From: Nitrososphaerota archaeon
GTDB taxonomy: Archaea > Thermoproteota > Nitrososphaeria_A > Caldarchaeales > Wolframiiraptoraceae
Reading direction: 5' to 3'
Assembly (NCBI GenBank): GCA_021159365.1
Contig: JAGGRY010000043.1
Location: 6,418-70,417 of the forward strand
DNA: 64,000 nt
In this document: piece after piece, positions 22,873-38,241 of the stretch
Layout: every line of letters starts with the position of its first letter
Numbering within the stretch: position 1 is the first letter of the stretch
The notes under the pieces: model-generated
Databases searched by the model: none
Told to the model about the DNA's origin: nothing
Seen by the model: only the letters and a program-made list of their open reading frames with translations
Translations under genes and position numbers: made by a program

Positions 22873-24237
22873 ATGGAGATCTTGATGAGAATACCTAGAG
22901 CGTTAACTATAGCTGGATCGGATTCGGGAGGTGGAGCTGGAATCCAAGCGGATCTGAAGACCTTCGCGGCTCTCGGAGTTCATGGAATGAGCGCATTAAC
23001 CGCGATAACCGCTCAAAACACTCGTGAGGTAACCATGGTACATGATATTCCAATCGAGATGATTAAGGAGCAGATTAGAGTCGTGGTGGAGGATATTGGA
23101 GTTGACGCGGTTAAGACTGGAATGCTTCATACGAGCGAGATCATTGAAGCCGTGGCCTCGGAGCTTAGAAAGATAGATGCTCCTCTGGTTGTCGATCCAG
23201 TGATGGTTGCGAAGAGTGGAGCAAGGCTTCTAAGAGAAGATGCCGTTAAATCTCTGATCGAGGAACTGATCCCATTAGCTACCGTCTTAACCCCGAATGC
23301 AGGTGAAGCGGAAGCCTTAACAGGATTCAAGATTAAGAATCTAGAAGATCAGAAGCGGGCTGCGGAGAAGATCTCAGAGCTTGGTGTTAAGGCGGTGGTG
23401 GTTAAGGGCGGACACATCCCTGGAGAAAAAGTCATCGACGTCCTCTACTTCGATGGAGAGTTCAAGACTTATGAGTCGAGGAGAATTAAGAGCAAGAATA
23501 CTCATGGAACTGGATGCTGCTTCGCGTCAGCGATAGCCGCCGAACTCGCGAAGAATATTCCTATACCTGAAGCCGTTGAGGTCGCTAAGAGATTTGTTGA
23601 GGACGCGATCAGATATGGTTTTCCGGTTGGGGGAGGCCATGGCCCAATAAATCCCGTTGGAAGATTGATTGAAGACGCTGATAGATTCAGGGTTTTAGAT
23701 TCTATGAGAAGGGCCGTGAAGATCCTCGAATCTATGAACCTCTCCGAATATATTCCAGAATCTCAATCGAATCTCGTCATGGCGATCGAGGGAGCGGATG
23801 ATTTATCCGATGTCGCCGCGATACCGGGAAGAATCGTGAGAATCTATGATAGGGTTAAGGCCTCGGAAGCACCTTGGTTTGGAGCGTCGAGGCATGTGGC
23901 AAACGCCGTCTTAACGGCCATGAAATTTGATCCTAGAATTAGATCGGCGATAAATCTAAGATATGATGACAGGCTGATCGAGGCCGCGAAGAATCTTGGA
24001 TGGGTCGTAAGCTTTTATGATAGGAGAGAGGAACCTGAGGAGATTAAGAAGCTTGAGGGAAGAACCGTTCCATGGGGTATAGAGACCGCTGTGAAGAGAG
24101 CCGGTGGAAGAGTTCCAGACCTAGTCTATCATCTAGGAGATTGGGGGAAGGAGCCGATGGTCCTAGTCTTCGGTAGAGATTCCATGGATGTCGTGGAGAA
24201 GATTGAGAGATTGATCGCCGAATTATCGAGATTATGA
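22873..24237 (+). CDS. thiDN: bifunctional HMP/HMP-P kinase + thiamine-phosphate synthase (ThiD-ThiN fusion)
   Basis: N-terminal ThiD: [21 protein letters not shown]..., [17 protein letters not shown]. The C-terminal ~180 aa are a ThiN-type domain, as in archaeal ThiDN. Confidence 0.85.
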
Positions 24238-29313: not shown

Positions 29314-29595
29314 CTAGTGTTCCATCTCTTCCCTCTTAATGAGCTCGACGATCTTTCGCTCAGCATCTAAGCTTAGGACTCTCACCTTATCTCTTATCTC
29401 GAGTCTCATTAACATGTGCCTAAGCTCCGGCAAGGTTAAATCTATTCCACGTTTCCTGAGCTCTTCGAGTAGATTTAACTCTAGAGATTTTCCCCCAAGC
29501 TTATCCAGAACCTCTACTATTCTTGAGTAAGCTTCGCTTCCAGGTCTCGAAATATGTTTTACAGCCTTCTTACCAGCTCTCTTCATGTTCTTCAA
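29314..29595 (-). CDS. small hypothetical protein (wHTH-like), translationally coupled to cdc48
   Basis: 93 aa. Its ATG overlaps the cdc48 stop (ATGA). [49 protein letters not shown] looks winged-helix-like. Confidence 0.45.
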
Positions 29596-31766
29596 CCTAT
29601 CATAGTCAGCTGTCTCTCATGATATCTCAATAACTCTCCAACCCTCTCATACTCCTTAACCATCTGTGGAGAGATGCTGGGCTTAACCATCTTCAACGCC
29701 TCTTCGAAGTCCATCTTTGAGACATACTCCGCATCGAGGCTTCTTCTAAGAGCGTTCATGGCCGCTTCCCTACAGAGAGCTGCTAGATCTGCTCCTGAAT
29801 ATCCCTCGGTTCTAGAGGCGAGCTCCTTTAAAGATACATTTGGCGATAGAGGCATCTTCCTCGTATAGATCTTCAGGATCTCATATCTTCCCTTCTCATC
29901 TGGAGGTGGAACATAGATTAGCCTATCAAATCTTCCAGGCCTCAAGGCGGCTGGATCCATCAAATCCGGCCTATTCGTCGCCCCAATAACTATAACATCC
30001 GAAAGCTCCTCTATTCCGTCTATCTCGGCCAAGAACTGGCTTGCAACTCTATTCGCAACTCCAGATGAGTCATCAATCATATCTTTTCTCGATATTATTG
30101 ACTCGACTTCATCGAAGAAGACTACACATGGTGAGGCTTGCCTCGCTTTTCTGAATATCTCTCTTATCGCCTTCTCAGATTCCCCAACCCACTTATTGAA
30201 TATCTCAGGTCCTTTGATGGAGATGAAGTTCGCCTCGCTTTCAGTGGCTATAGCTCTTGCGAGCAACGTCTTACCACATCCAGGAGGACCATACAGTAAT
30301 ATGCCCTTCGGAGGCTTGATTCCAAGTTTCTCGAATTTCTCTGGATACTTTAGAGGCCATTCAACGGCTTCTATTAGCCTCCGCTTAACTTGTTCAAGTC
30401 CTCCGACATCTTCCCATCTAACGTTTGGGACCTCTATCTCAACTTCTCTTAGAGCTGTCGGGGTTATCTCCTTGAACGCGTTCATGAAGTCCTTCATAGT
30501 TACAACCAGATTATCTAAGATCTCCGGTGGAATCTTCTCCTCACTGAAATCTATGTTCGGCAGAATTCTCCTAATCGCCTTCATCGCCGCCTCTCTACAT
30601 AACGCAGCTAGATCTGCTCCAGTGTATCCTCTGGTTATTTCGGCGAGTTTATCGAGGTTCACGTCCTCTGCTAAGGGCATGCCCCTGGTGTGGATTTGGA
30701 GGATCTCCTTTCTCCCATTTCTATCAGGTATACCTATCTCAATTTCTCGGTCGAATCTTCCAGGTCTTCTGAGAGCTGGGTCGAGGGCGTTAGGTCTATT
30801 CGTCGCTCCAATAACTATGACTTGACCTCTTGATTCAAGTCCATCCATCAGGGCTAATAATTGGGCTACAACTCTCTTCTCAACCTCTCCCGTGACTTCG
30901 CTTCTCTTCGGAGCGATTGCGTCGAGCTCGTCGATGAATATTATTGATGGAGCTTCTTCCTCAGCCTTCCTAAAGATCTCTCTAAGCCTCGCCTCGGTCT
31001 CGCCATAATACTTGTTCATGATCTCAGGTCCATTTATCAGGATGAAATTCGCCTCGGCCTCGGTTGCTACCGCCTTCGCCAATAACGTCTTACCGCATCC
31101 AGGAGGACCGTATAGCAAGACCCCTTTTGGAGGATCTATTCCGAGCTTCTGGAATAGTTCTGGATATCTTAATGGAAGCTCTATCATCTCCCTGATTCTC
31201 TGGATCTGTTCCTGCAGTCCTCCAATATCCTCATAGGTTACACTCGTTCTAAACGCTCTCTCTTGAACCACCTTGCTGTGAATCACGAGCTTCGTCTTCG
31301 GGGTTATCTTAACTATTCCAGATGGCCTAGTCTGAATAACTGCGAAGGTGAATAAGTTTCCGAAGAATAGGACTGGAACGATATTCTTCTGAACAAGTGG
31401 ATATTCTATCAATCTGCTCTTAACAAGCCTCGTGAAGTTTTCATCAGGTCTTATCGAAGAACTCACCGGAGCCAATACGACTAATTGGGCTTCCTTCACA
31501 TTCGCCTTCCTAACGGTCACCCAATCGTTTAGGGAGACTCCAGCATTACTTCTGATATAACCATCTATTCTAATTACATCTTTCTCATCTTCAAGGTATC
31601 CTAGCCAGAGGGTTGCGGCTGCAATTTTTCTACCCCTAATCTCAACCATATCTCCGGTCTGGAATCCAGCTGAGGCTCCGACTTCTCTATCTATTCTCGC
31701 TATACCATATCCGACGTCTCTTTGACGAGCTTCAGCGACCCTCAACCTCAGCTCCCTAACTTTCAT
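29592..31766 (-). CDS. cdc48: CDC48/VCP-like AAA+ ATPase (paralog 1)
   Basis: N-domain [19 protein letters not shown]. Two AAA modules, each with [13 protein letters not shown] / [13 protein letters not shown] Walker A, DELD/DEVE Walker B, and SRH motifs. Confidence 0.95.
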
Positions 31767-33548: not shown

Positions 33549-33827
33549 TTGAAGAAGGTTAGGGCTCATGTGATAATCTCCGGCAGAGTTCAGGGCGTAT
33601 TCTATAGGGTTAACGCGAAGCGGATGGCGGACAAGATTGGGGTTAAGGGCTGGATAAGAAATCTTCCGGATGGCAGGGTTGAGGCCGTATTTGAGGGAGA
33701 TGAGGAAGCTGTTAAGAGAATGTTATCATGGTGTTGGGTTGGACCAGCTGGAGCGAGGGTTACGAATATAGATGTTGAGTGGGAGGAATATCTCGGAGAA
33801 TATGATAACTTTAAGGTTCTCTATTAA
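33549..33827 (+). CDS. acyP: acylphosphatase
   Basis: VIISGRVQGVFYRVNAKRMADKIGVKGWIRNLPDGRVEAVFEG signature. TTG start. Confidence 0.9.
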   Translation: MKKVRAHVIISGRVQGVFYRVNAKRMADKIGVKGWIRNLPDGRVEAVFEGDEEAVKRMLSWCWVGPAGARVTNIDVEWEEYLGEYDNFKVLY

Positions 33828-35235
33828 GACTATCGGCCAAGACCTTCCTCCCACTCTCGGTCAAGTGATACTTCCTAACCATCCTTCTACCCAATCCTCT
33901 CTCGGGGGGCTTCGATACTATTAATCCCATCCGAAGGAGTTCCGAGAGATGTTGATAGATCGTCGGAAGCTTGAACTCTAATCCATAAGTGATTTTAAGG
34001 GCCTTCCACAACTCATATCCATACATGCTCCTCTCAGACAATAGCTTGAGTATCTTGAGCTTGGTTCCAGAAACCCTAACATGTTTAGGATAACTGAGCT
34101 TAAACAACTCCCTTATCGACGCCGGATCCTTAAGCCCAGAACCCGTTATCATGCAGACGACCTTCTCAGATCTATCGATTAAACCATCGTTCACGGCGAT
34201 CCTTAAGGCGGCGATCGAAGCCGCTGCAGCCGGCTCCGCCAAGATTCCTTCAGTCTTTGCTAGGAGTTTTATTGATTCTAAGATCTCATCTTCCTCTACC
34301 ATTATCGCCGAGCCGCCGGAGCTTCTGATCGCTTTCAAGACTATCGATCCTAAAATCGGGCTCGGCTCCGATATGTCTGGAAATATCATCTTACAGTCTT
34401 TCTTGGGCTCAATTTCGTCCAAACCCTTCTTAAAGGCCTCCACAATTGGAGCGCATCCAGAAGCTTGAACTCCATAAAGTCTTGGAAGATTTCCCTTGAT
34501 TAGCCCAAGTGATTCAGCTTCATTCAACGCTTTCCACGTCGCTGTTAAGTTGCTTCCAGTACCCATGGTTATGAAGATGGCGTCCGGAGGATTCCAGTCT
34601 AATTGTTCAAGGATCTCAAGGGTCGAGGTCTTAAGCCCATCTAAGAAGAATGGATTGTATGGCTCGACGAGATGCCCATCCCCAAGATGATTGAATCTTC
34701 TAGAGGAATAGATGAGTTCAGCGTCATAGGCCAAGGCTTGGAGAATCTTCGCCTGCTCAGCTCCAGGTAAGACGTAAACCCTGCATGGGATTCCGGCCTT
34801 AACAGCGTAAGCGGCGAGCGATGCAGCCAAGTTTCCTCTAGAAATGCATTCCAAACATCTTACATCGGAGTGGAGGGCCATGGTGACTTCGATCGTTGAA
34901 CCCCTATCCAAGAAGGATCCAGTCGGATTCATGGTCTCATTCTTCAGGTAAAGATTCCTCAATCCAAGTTCTCGGCCAAGCCTCTCAGCCCGTTGAAGAT
35001 ACGTTCCACCTTCTCCCAAGCTCACGGGCTCCCCAACAGCTTTAGGCAGGAGTTCGAGGTATCTCCAGACTCCAAGAGGTCTAGACTCTATAATCGTCCT
35101 GAGCTCACTTCCTCTCATTCTCAAGCCCTCAATTTGATGAGCTAAGAGTAGTGGGGAGCCGCATTCACAGAGCCTTAACCGGATGTCTGGAGGGTAAATT
35201 TTTCCGCATTGGATGCATTTTAGCTGGGAGTTCAT
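33811..35235 (-). CDS. threonine-synthase-fold protein lacking the PLP lysine, fused to a C-terminal PadR-type wHTH
   Basis: N-terminal Cys4 ribbon (CIQCG..CECG). ThrC motifs SLGEGGT, NPTGSF-L-DRG (Leu where the Schiff-base Lys belongs), SRGN, GTGSN and ITGSGLKD. C-terminus: KILKLLSERSMYGYELWKAL...TIYQHLSELLRMGLIVS...RKYHLTESGRKVL. Confidence 0.8.
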   Translation of the reverse strand: MNSQLKCIQCGKIYPPDIRLRLCECGSPLLLAHQIEGLRMRGSELRTIIESRPLGVWRYLELLPKAVGEPVSLGEGGTYLQRAERLGRELGLRNLYLKNETMNPTGSFLDRGSTIEVTMALHSDVRCLECISRGNLAASLAAYAVKAGIPCRVYVLPGAEQAKILQALAYDAELIYSSRRFNHLGDGHLVEPYNPFFLDGLKTSTLEILEQLDWNPPDAIFITMGTGSNLTATWKALNEAESLGLIKGNLPRLYGVQASGCAPIVEAFKKGLDEIEPKKDCKMIFPDISEPSPILGSIVLKAIRSSGGSAIMVEEDEILESIKLLAKTEGILAEPAAAASIAALRIAVNDGLIDRSEKVVCMITGSGLKDPASIRELFKLSYPKHVRVSGTKLKILKLLSERSMYGYELWKALKITYGLEFKLPTIYQHLSELLRMGLIVSKPPERGLGRRMVRKYHLTESGRKVLADSLNREP

Positions 35236-35238
35236 TTA

Positions 35239-35250
35239 CCTATATATAGG
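35239..35250. promoter_or_regulatory. palindromic TATA element CCTATATATAGG in a divergent promoter region
   Basis: Perfect 12-nt palindrome 4 nt from the ThrC-like gene start codon. A second TATA-like CTTATATC lies at 35257-35264, facing the + strand gene. Confidence 0.4.
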
Positions 35251-35271
35251 CAATCCCTTATATCTCCCTAT

Positions 35272-35285
35272 CGCTCAGCTGAGCG
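35272..35285. promoter_or_regulatory. perfect 14-nt palindrome CGCTCAGCTGAGCG (operator-like)
   Basis: Read directly from the sequence. It lies between the TATA-like box (35257-35264) and the ATG at 35289, which is where an archaeal repressor would block initiation. Confidence 0.4.
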
Positions 35286-35288
35286 CAG

Positions 35289-35993
35289 ATGAATAGATCT
35301 AAGTCCTTGATAGCCGCTAAGCTCGCGCTCTCAACGGCCTTAGTTATGGCCTCGACCATGGCGATAAATGTCTATGTTCCAGCGACCCGCGGATACTTCA
35401 ATTTAGGCGAATGCATGATCTATTTGGTGGCCCTTCTCTTCGACCCGGTCACCGCCGCCTTTGCAGGTGGAATTGGATCTGCATTAGCGGATATAGCTTT
35501 AGGATACTTGATCTATGCTCCAGCGACTTTAGTGATTAAGGCAGCTGAGGGTGCTGTTGCCTCGAAACTTGCAAAGAAGATTAAAGCTAGAGGTGAATCC
35601 ATCCTTCTACCGATAGCTTTCCTGGTCGTGGCAGGATACTTCACCCTCATCCTCATAATCGGATACACGATCTTCGCGGGAGAAGTTGAGTTCACCCTCG
35701 CAAACTTTTTCGTTGTTAAAGGATTTCTAAGTCCGGTGACGTGGATTCCGATAGCCTTTGCCGCAACTCTCATTCCATTCTATCTAACTCTTAGAAGAAG
35801 AGGCGAGGGACTACTCATCGCCGCTCTCCTTTTATCAGGTCTCATCATGATCTCCGGATACTTCATCTACGAACAATTGATCTTAGGCTATTATGCGTTG
35901 GCGGAAGTTCCTGTGAATTTTGGGCAGGCGGTTCTTGGAACAGCTATCGCAATCCCGCTCTATAAGGCGGTTCAGAAAATTAGGGGCGCATAA
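35289..35993 (+). CDS. ECF-transporter S-component-like membrane protein (substrate unknown)
   Basis: Six or so TM helices. [52 protein letters not shown] resembles RibU/ThiW-type S components. No ECF A/T genes are in the window. Confidence 0.5.
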
Positions 35994-36030: not shown

Positions 36031-38241
36031 ATGGACGGCTATCCAAGATATGTCTCGAAGTTCGAAATGGTTCGGAGAGAACGTAGGAAGGAAGTTCAGC
36101 TCAGGGTTGCCGAGGCTCGTCAAAGAGATATTGGGAGGAAGATCGCTAGACTCGACAGTAGGGCGATTAGAGAGCTTGGCCTAAGCCCAGGAGATCTAGT
36201 CGAGATAATTGGAAAGAGATCTACTCTCGCAATAGTATGGCCACCATATAAGGAAGACGACGGAATGGGGTTGATCAGGATAGATGGAGAAGTTCGGAGA
36301 AATGCGGGAGTCTCTGTGGGAGACTATGTTAGGGTTGCGAAGGCGAATGCGAAGCCCGCTACAAAGATCGTTTTAGCCCCATTCGAGTCTCTTCCATTCG
36401 TTGGAGATTTCGCGAGAATAGTTCGCAGTCAGCTCCTAAATCTCCCCGTGATGAAGGGTGACATAATAGTCATCCCAGTCTTGGGAATGGGCGTTGAGCT
36501 TAAAGTTACATCAACGAGTCCAACCAACGCCGTCATAGTCACGGAGAACACGATCGTCGAGGTAAGCACGACGCCTGTGAGAAGGGTTGAGGAAGTAGGC
36601 GGAGTAACCTATGAAGATATTGGAGGACTTCATGAAGAGCTTCAAAGGATTAGAGAGATGGTCGAACTTCCTCTAAAACATCCAGAACTCTTCAGGCATC
36701 TTGGAATAGATCCTCCGAAAGGAGTCATCCTATATGGTCCACCTGGATGCGGTAAGACCTTGATAGCTAAGGCAATAGCGAATGAGACTGGAGCCCACTT
36801 CATCTCGATAAATGGACCTGAGATAATGAGCAAGTTTTATGGTGAGAGCGAGGCAAGGCTTAGAGAGGTATTCCAAGAAGCTGAGCAAAACGCTCCAAGC
36901 ATAATATTCATCGATGAGCTTGATGCGATCGCCCCGAAGCGTGGAGAAGTTACGGGAGAAGTTGAGCGGAGAGTCGTCTCCCAGCTCCTAACCCTAATGG
37001 ATGGATTGAAGACCCGCGGCCAAGTCATAGTCATAGGTGCAACGAATAGAATTGAAGCCGTTGATCCAGCTCTCAGGAGACCTGGAAGATTCGACCGAGA
37101 GATCAGGATAGGTGTTCCTGATAGAAATGGGAGAAAGGAGATATTCCAAATACACACCAGGAGGATGCCCCTCGCGGAGGATGTCGACTTGGATGAATTG
37201 GCGGATATAACTCATGGATTCACCGGAGCCGACATAGCGGCTCTTTGTAGGGAAGCTGCGATGAGCGCGCTTAGAAGATTTTTGCCGAAGATAGATTTGG
37301 AGAGGGAGACTATTCCAGCTGAGATTCTTGAGCAGATAAAGGTTACAAGAGAAGACTTCACGAATGCGTTGAGAATAGTTCAGCCCTCAGCTCTGAGGGA
37401 AGTTATCTTGGAGATACCGAATGTTAGATGGGAAGATATAGGAGACCTTGAACAAGTTAAGCAGGAGTTGAAGGAAGCCGTTGAATGGCCTCTAAAGTAT
37501 CCGGATGTCTTTAAGAGGCTTGGAATAAGGCCTCCGCGGGGAATCCTACTCTATGGCCCACCTGGAACGGGTAAGACTCTACTTGCAAAGGCCGTTGCGA
37601 CTGAGAGCGAGGCGAACTTCATCTCCGTTAAAGGGCCAGAAGTGTTAAGCAAGTGGGTTGGGGAATCTGAGAAGGCGATAAGGGAAATATTTAGAAAAGC
37701 GAGAGAAACCGCTCCATGCATAATCTTCTTCGATGAGCTCGACGCAATCGCCCCTAGAAGAGGGATGCATACTGATGCCGGCGTAACTGATAGAATTGTT
37801 AACCAGATCTTGACGGAGATGGATGGAATTCAGATCCTTAAGGGAGTCGTCGTGATCGGGGCCACGAATAGACCTGACATCTTAGATCCAGCTCTACTTA
37901 GACCTGGAAGATTCGATAGAGTGATCTACGTCCCGCCGCCAGATGTTGAAGGAAGATATCAGATATTCCAAATACACACTAGGGAGATGCCGTTAGACGA
38001 TGATGTCGATTTGAGGAGACTTGCCGAAATGACTGAGGGATATACCGGAGCCGACATAGAGGCGGTATGTAGGGAAGCAGCGTTAACGGCTGCGAGAGAA
38101 GACTTGAATATCAAGAAAGTCTCGATGAGACACTTCGTCGCCGCCTTGGAGAAGGTGAAGCCTAGCATAACTCCTGAGCAGAGACGCGAGTATGAGAAGA
38201 TCTTGACGGACTTCAGGAGATCGATGGCCTACATATCCTAG
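36031..38241 (+). CDS. cdc48: CDC48/VCP-like AAA+ ATPase (paralog 2)
   Basis: [20 protein letters not shown]-domain. Walker [14 protein letters not shown] and [13 protein letters not shown]. The start is either ATG 36031 or ATG 36067; the ORF-track start at 35920 overlaps the upstream gene. Confidence 0.95.

Follow-up and report, generated by a model that had tools for sequence, protein, structure and literature searches.

In the window, i.e. the whole stretch of 64,000 nucleotides that was analysed here and that corresponds to contig C3:6418-70417 of the archaeal MAG G000 (1.25 Mb, 58 contigs, 89% complete), two divergent genes have their start codons separated by a spacer of only 53 nt (35236-35288). 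One of them encodes a ThrC-like protein with a fused winged helix-turn-helix (wHTH) domain, in the following termed the regulator, the other one encodes a membrane protein that is a candidate importer. The public genomes nearest to G000 carry the labels Aigarchaeota, Thaumarchaeota and Nitrososphaeria and include genera such as Geocrenenecus, Terraquivivens and Pelearchaeum. All coordinates of the two genes, of the spacer and of the three spacer elements that had been given in a preliminary description of the locus were found to be correct on re-reading, and they are compiled in Table 1 together with the 6-nt stretch between two of these elements. The locus is flanked by two full-length CDC48/VCP paralogs (window positions 29592-31766 and about 36031-38241). 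The CDC48 gene that follows the importer gene is syntenic in the genera g1 (the genus of G000), g2, g3 and g5, and it was not detected beside the importer gene in g4 and g8; in g4 this synteny is lost and yet the pair of regulator and importer is kept. The CDC48 paralogs and the other neighbours, which are genes for EF-1beta, an FAD oxidoreductase, a DUF72 protein and glycine cleavage, were considered as parts of the system and rejected, as there is no functional tie.

Table 1. Coordinates of the genes and spacer elements in the window, and of homologous loci with other partner genes (own locus coordinates)
Feature	Position	Strand	Remark
Regulator gene (ThrC-like + wHTH)	33811-35235	minus	474 aa
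Membrane-protein gene (importer candidate)	35289-35993	plus	234 aa
12-nt palindrome CCTATATATAGG (candidate operator)	35239-35250		3 nt from regulator start codon; 6 nt upstream of TATA
6-nt spacer CAATCC	35251-35256	plus	putative BRE position of the rightward importer promoter
TATA box CTTATATC (candidate)	35257-35264		consensus (C)TTATATAT
Perfect 14-nt palindrome CGCTCAGCTGAGCG	35272-35285		between TATA and importer start; ends 3 nt before ATG
Loci with GNAT/EamA partners	L082:2727-3886; L063:2754-4081; L061:2289-3904; L059:89-1060

When 40 relatives of the same order were surveyed, the divergent pair was found in four genera of the same family, namely in g1 (3/3, G000 and both congeners), g3 (1/3), g4 (6/6) and g5 (6/6), and in addition in g11 (1/1). 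A search of public genomes with a profile of the regulator yielded 80 loci, about 70 of which encode full-length fused proteins, and these fused loci belong to Aigarchaeota, Bathyarchaeia, Thor-, Hermod-, Prometh-, Njord-, Sif- and Brockarchaeota as well as Methanomethylicia. In about 60 of the roughly 70 fused loci, a homolog of the membrane protein is encoded just upstream on the opposite strand (one of them was added by Pfam). The two genes had been regarded as a unit of a regulator and its target already in the preliminary description, and this idea is supported by a divergent pairing that recurs in so many loci of several archaeal phyla. Some regulator orthologs face other genes, the products of which are GNAT, EamA, AIR-synthase-like, DHPS-like or DeoC-like proteins. 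In several Thorarchaeota, a gene for a GNAT acetyltransferase is found next to the candidate operator and is followed by the gene of a PF07155 S component; a Bathyarchaeota MAG has the gene of an EamA transporter behind the GNAT gene, and at another locus the EamA gene stands alone. These GNAT and EamA genes are possible extra members of the regulon or alternative B6 carriers.

The regulator combines a Pfam PALP match of 198.9 bits with a PadR match (PF03551, residues 395-467) of 42.5 bits, which exceeds the cut-off of 27 and establishes family membership. An N-terminal Cys4 ribbon, which begins at residue 7 and is invariant in the orthologs, is followed by a ThrC-like fold-type II PLP domain and by a C-terminal PadR-type wHTH (residues ~390-470), whose PDB matches are the PadR-like proteins 3ELK and 3L7W. 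The top Foldseek match of the AF2 model (pLDDT 89.1) is the Aquifex ThrC 2ZSJ with a TM-score of 0.85, and the wHTH is separate in this model. The protein stays below all curated equivalog cut-offs for ThrC (TIGR00260, 164.7 vs 167.1; NF006050, 287.8 vs 303; NF004170, 269 vs 421). The whole fused architecture is spanned by the NCBIfam model PRK05638, which is named 'threonine synthase'; the regulator of G000 does not reach the cut-off of that model, and as this cut-off was exceeded in none of 14 control genomes, no model organism could be identified via PRK05638.

In ThrC, the lysine of the SFKDRG motif is the residue that forms the Schiff base with PLP. HMMER alignments with the solved ThrC structures 2D1F and 2ZSJ place Leu109 of the regulator at this position (SFLDRG vs SFKDRG), and in the 70 fused orthologs the position is occupied by Ile (41), Leu (19), Thr (7), Val (2) or Ala (1) and in no case by Lys (0/70). 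The loss of the Schiff-base lysine in all orthologs argues against a catalysis by the regulator. Fourteen other positions are invariant in the 70 orthologs (N103, P104, G106, D110, R111, G112, N135, S139, G225, G227, T364, G365, G367 and K369), and the segments that are kept, NPTG-F-DRG, the GN of the STGN segment, the Gly-rich loop with G225 and G227, and TG-G-LK (364-369), are those which we take to stack on the PLP ring, to hold its O3' and N1, and to bind the PLP phosphate in ThrC. In the same alignments, the segments STGNTSAS and NPxRxEGQKT, which presumably hold the substrate phosphate in the ThrC structures, are changed to SRGNLAAS and NPFFLDGLKT. Judged from these residues, the ThrC-derived domain looks like a ligand-binding pseudoenzyme that holds PLP only non-covalently, and a non-covalent holding would suit a protein that senses how much free cofactor is available.

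Most relatives have a canonical ThrC (>290 bits) alongside the fused copy, and both congeners also carry a 422-aa ThrC above the cut-off (G001:C2:40440-41444 and G002:C1:56516-57520). In the 89% complete genome of G000, neither tblastn nor TIGR00260 detected a canonical ThrC besides the fused copy without the lysine; either the ThrC gene lies in the unassembled 11%, or the organism is unable to make threonine this way. Bacterial homologs of the regulator are unfused and have no membrane-protein neighbour, and in one of them (L110), in which the position was read directly, the catalytic lysine is present.

The membrane protein had been described as resembling vitamin-type ECF S components, with a search against S-component families by HMMs as the proposed check, and this assignment has been substantiated in sequence and fold. 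The protein belongs to PF07155, the PdxU/HmpT transport family (98.9 bits vs a gathering cut-off of 26.7), and no other S-component family was matched at E<=1. Its sole PDB sequence match is 4HZU_S with an identity of about 17%, and 4HZU_S is also the first Foldseek match of its AF2 model (pLDDT 89.8; prob 1.00, TMt 0.80), followed by TmRibU, ThiT, PanT, RibU and BioY, which shows that the model has the S-component fold with its six-helix core. PF07155/COG4720 includes PdxU and HmpT/PdxU2, and the verified substrate of HmpT/PdxU2 is pyridoxamine (PMC9997740, PMC4860826). The membership in PF07155 alone does not fix the substrate, as HmpT was first predicted to be a carrier of hydroxymethylpyrimidine (HMP; PMC4860826). 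According to the alignment, the protein contains an insertion of ~85 aa at residues ~100-185, which is modelled as two helices and two beta hairpins. The insertion is found in the Aigarchaeal, some bathyarchaeal, and the Methanomethylicia, Njord- and Brockarchaeota orthologs, and is absent from the 160-206-aa Asgard orthologs and from bacterial HmpT. As no energizing components are encoded nearby, it had been reasoned that the protein acts alone or with modules encoded elsewhere, and the latter is borne out by a solitary EcfA-EcfA'-EcfT operon (ABC-ABC-CbiQ/EcfT) on contig C23 of G000.

As to the DNA elements, a module of the palindrome CCTATATATAGG and a TATA box was found with at most two mismatches in 64 of 66 homologous loci of several archaeal phyla, the lineages being Aigarchaeota, Bathyarchaeia, Thor-, Hermod-, Njord- and Brockarchaeota. 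The module rows were found by the palindrome match, which inflates the information content of the palindrome itself; the TATA box and the spacing were no part of the row selection. The TATA positions are nearly invariant across the 63 unique modules (consensus in Table 1), and the spacer between palindrome and TATA box has a length of 6 nt in nearly all loci, with 5 nt in L104. In most lineages this spacer is A-rich (TCAAAG, TTGAAA), module positions 16-17 are mostly A, and the 12-nt palindrome is often longer in the homologous loci, with the sequence GCCTATATATAGGC. The distance from the palindrome to the regulator start codon ranges from 3 to 17 nt and that from the TATA box to the importer start codon from 22 to >100 nt. 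In importer loci of close relatives, the palindrome is present in all 17 cases with a regulator gene and in none of the 10 cases without it. In its perfect form, the 12-mer is found at a single place in the 1.25-Mb genome, and a search for further regulon members in G000 detected none, as 0 of 53 sites with one or two mismatches carry the TATA module. The conserved 12-14-nt dyad that covaries with the regulator gene is a candidate site of the PadR wHTH dimer.

With this, the roles of the spacer elements shift. The palindrome CCTATATATAGG, which had been taken for merely a bidirectional TATA box, is by its footprint instead the candidate operator of the regulator (35239-35250), and the element CTTATATC at 35257-35264 is the candidate for the real TATA box. 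As the Cys ribbon is invariant from residue 7 on, the start codon of the regulator gene is fixed, and the palindrome is thus too close to it for a TATA box. Measured from the centre of CTTATATC, the importer ATG is 28.5 nt and the regulator ATG 25.5 nt away; at such distances, a single near-symmetric TATA box could give rise to leaderless transcripts of both genes, and CTTATATC may have this shared use. At the locus of Ca. Geocrenenecus dongiae (L047; also in L027), the module is doubled in a spacer of 146 nt (L047:3840-4000), one copy abutting the regulator gene and the other one lying before the importer gene, an arrangement that looks like a division of the shared promoter into two.

A circuit for the uptake of vitamin B6 or of an amino-acid derivative was one concrete hypothesis of the preliminary description, and its B6 version has gained support from several independent lines, among them the PF07155 family, the complementarity with PdxS, and the pdxST partners of some regulators. 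All genomes considered here are MAGs, many of them incomplete, and each absence therefore means 'not found'; the genomes are also related and no independent samples, and the following counts are suggestive rather than statistical. In G000 (89% complete), no PdxS and no PdxJ could be detected. A candidate for PdxT in this genome, which was a partial match of only 27 bits, was rejected as probably being another amidotransferase. A strong importer ortholog is present in 26 of 41 related genomes, and 25 of these 26 have no PdxS; conversely, 10 of the 11 PdxS-positive genomes have no importer ortholog. The switch occurs even within one genus (g2). The sole related genome with a strong importer ortholog and PdxS is G021 (contigs C3 and C49), where PdxS lies at a contig start; salvage and synthesis may truly overlap here, or the co-occurrence may be due to a binning artefact. 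In other phyla, PdxS was found in only 4 of 45 regulator-bearing genomes. None of these four loci has an importer gene next to the regulator; in two of them, L088 (Borrarchaeum) and L104 (a Nitrososphaerales MAG), it is pdxS, followed by pdxT, that is faced by the regulator behind similar palindromes. By its family and its genomic distribution, the 234-aa protein is a candidate for the binding and import of a B6 vitamer.

A dedicated pyridoxal kinase was not found in G000, in which the Phos_pyr_kin domain occurs only in ThiDN; a weak Phos_pyr_kin match on C8 belongs to an NAD(P)HX dehydratase and was rejected. The ThiDN-type gene is located in the window (22921-23652, i.e. G000:C3:29338-30069) and gives a Phos_pyr_kin match of 338.8 bits in a 476-aa frame. 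ThiD2-type enzymes double as pyridoxal kinase in some bacteria, and also ThiDN, the sole candidate for a B6 kinase that was found, could have this second function.

The 14-nt palindrome CGCTCAGCTGAGCG had been proposed to be the operator of the fused regulator, with CCTATATATAGG serving just as a bidirectional TATA box, and it indeed is a perfect dyad between TATA box and start codon, which is the classic position of an archaeal repressor. The footprinting in relatives that had been suggested as a check upholds the divergent pair and the 12-nt palindrome and disproves the conservation of the 14-nt palindrome: both same-genus genomes have CCCCCAACTGAGCC in place of CGCTCAGCTGAGCG, with 4 changes in 14 nt, although the 36 nt to the left of it differ at one position only and although their regulators are 88% and their importers 90% identical, and CGCTCAGCTGAGCG is absent from all homologous loci of other lineages that were compared. 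As there are 92 perfect 14-nt palindromes in G000, three of them within the window, vs about 76 that are naively expected, the presence of CGCTCAGCTGAGCG is unremarkable. Moreover, the 12-mer lies too near to the regulator start codon to be the TATA box of that gene, the conservation extends to its G/C flanks, and its presence varies together with that of the regulator. It is thus extremely improbable that CGCTCAGCTGAGCG is the operator; it is probably a chance feature that is private to G000 and has no conserved role. Improbable is also that the 12-nt palindrome is a strong promoter element, such as a second TATA box or BRE, of a shared divergent promoter, with the ThrC-wHTH protein acting elsewhere or being a moonlighting enzyme. 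The core TATATATA is TATA-like, so that a competition with TBP or a use as a promoter element is conceivable, and compact promoters are often common to divergent archaeal genes, but importer promoters lack the palindrome precisely at those loci that have no regulator gene, and its outer C/G pairs form a strict dyad that is no requirement of TBP. An enzymatic function does not fit the loss of the Schiff-base lysine in 70 of 70 orthologs, and the recognition-helix residues Y427 and H429 of the wHTH are kept in at least 95% of these orthologs, in parallel to the DNA motif.

A further reading, which is conceivable, albeit unlikely, accepts the circuit and the 12-nt palindrome, but assumes that ligand and cargo are not B6. 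Candidates would be a metabolite that derives from an amino acid and is related to the substrate of ThrC, or the thiamine precursor HMP. The sensor descends from ThrC, the HmpT-type proteins were initially predicted to carry HMP (PMC4860826), one regulator ortholog (L094) has an AIR-synthase-like gene and ThiDN as neighbours, and ThiC was not found in G000. What speaks against the thiamine precursor is the distribution of the biosynthetic genes: the importer complements PdxS, but among the relatives there is no complementarity with ThiC, and the six genomes of f2 have PdxS, but neither ThiC nor the importer. The HMP/thiamine alternative is weakened by this distribution and was rejected. Further arguments against a ligand other than B6 are the alteration of the segments that presumably hold the substrate phosphate in ThrC, the invariance of the PLP-contacting positions, and the pairing of the regulator with pdxS-pdxT in two lineages.

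We thus consider it likely, with a probability of about 0.7, that the regulator is a one-component B6 sensor and not an enzyme, and that it controls a PdxU/HmpT-type importer via CCTATATATAGG; the locus is then most likely a PLP-sensing, autoregulated switch for B6 uptake. The ThrC-derived domain would keep the PLP pocket and report the free pool by binding PLP or another B6 vitamer phosphate, and as the Schiff-base lysine is absent, this binding would be reversible rather than covalent. The PadR-type wHTH, presumably as a dimer, would bind CCTATATATAGG, as is suggested by the phylogenetic footprinting and by the covariation with the regulator. For the importer gene, the palindrome would be positioned immediately upstream of BRE and TATA box, for the regulator gene it would be positioned between TATA box and start. 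Its occupancy can thus be expected to shut off the regulator's own gene, i.e. a negative autoregulation from a repressor position, and to modulate the importer gene in a ligand-dependent manner. As to the sign of the latter control, we lean slightly to an activation, in which the ligand-free form would position TFB and TBP, over a PLP-dependent co-repression, because the constant 6-nt spacing to the TATA box, with the palindrome just upstream of the BRE position, is reminiscent of predicted archaeal activators such as RbkR. The S component would dock on the solitary EcfA-EcfA'-EcfT module of C23, and the imported B6 vitamer would supply an organism for which the search gave no PLP synthase. 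A farther-reaching and rather doubtful idea is that these proteins constitute an ancient archaeal family of PLP-sensing transcription factors that has been misannotated as ThrC, and whose operator (G)CCTATATATAGG(C) and 6-nt TATA spacing have been kept from Thermoproteota to Asgard archaea. Such a factor might act as a directional switch on a shared near-symmetric TATA box, blocking the pre-initiation complex toward its own gene and positioning TFB and TBP for the importer gene or pdxST.

A similar solution is known from the bacterial MocR-subfamily regulator PdxR, in which a GntR wHTH is joined to a PLP-fold domain, and whose regulons include pdxST, pdxK and pdxU; MocR regulators have been stated to be absent from Archaea (PMC5320631). 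Like in PdxR/MocR, a PLP-fold sensor is joined to a winged helix, the arrangement is divergent and autoregulation is expected, and the targets include pdxST and a transporter, which is pdxU in the PdxR/MocR regulons (PMC5320631). In contrast, the sensor domain of the archaeal regulator is of fold-type II (ThrC) and not a fold-type I aminotransferase-like domain, its wHTH is of the PadR type and C-terminal instead of GntR and N-terminal, and the Schiff-base lysine is absent. The archaeal regulator is therefore an analogue of PdxR/MocR, and neither a member nor a homolog of that group. With RbkR, the riboflavin kinase/regulator of archaea, it shares the combination of an archaeal enzyme-derived domain with a wHTH; RbkR controls vitamin biosynthesis and transport genes, and its operators have been predicted a few nt upstream of TATA boxes or promoter elements (PMC5397151). 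However, RbkR is bifunctional and has kept its enzyme activity, whereas the regulator described here is without the catalytic lysine, and vitamin, fold and operator differ. The importer shares PF07155 and an EcfAA'T module encoded elsewhere with HmpT/PdxU2 (4HZU chain S) and PdxU, from the former of which it differs by the low identity of ~17%, by the ~85-aa insertion with its two extra helices, and by a B6 substrate that is only predicted. The regulator resembles ThrC in its fold, in an identity of ~35%, and in the N-terminal Zn ribbon of the archaeal-type ThrC, and it is distinguished from ThrC by the exchange of the catalytic Lys for Leu, by its scores below the equivalog cut-offs, and by the extra DNA-binding domain.

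A literature search, the scope of which was limited to journals outside subscription, gave nothing relevant on an archaeal ThrC-HTH protein or on an archaeal B6 regulator. If the B6-sensor reading is true, the family fills the gap of the missing archaeal counterpart to PdxR/MocR. Which proteins transport B6 is acknowledged to be an open question (PMC9997740), and the pairing with the regulator offers a concrete candidate for a B6 importer. Proteins that pass the cut-off of PRK05638 would be named as working enzymes, and for Aigarchaeota, Bathyarchaeia and Asgard archaea this can lead to distorted metabolic reconstructions. As most carriers have no detectable PLP synthase, a B6 auxotrophy is suggested, which would be useful to know for the design of cultivation media. 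The compact and deeply conserved module of candidate operator, BRE and TATA box is an attractive model for archaeal regulation at a shared promoter.

Besides the solitary operon on C23, G000 has a second ECF operon on contig C25, with the gene order QueT-EcfT-EcfA-EcfA'. The QueT-like S component at this locus (G000:C25:13614-17261; L002) bears an N-terminal extension of about 100 aa, and the linkage with QueT suggests that this second operon functions in the salvage of queuosine or archaeosine precursors.
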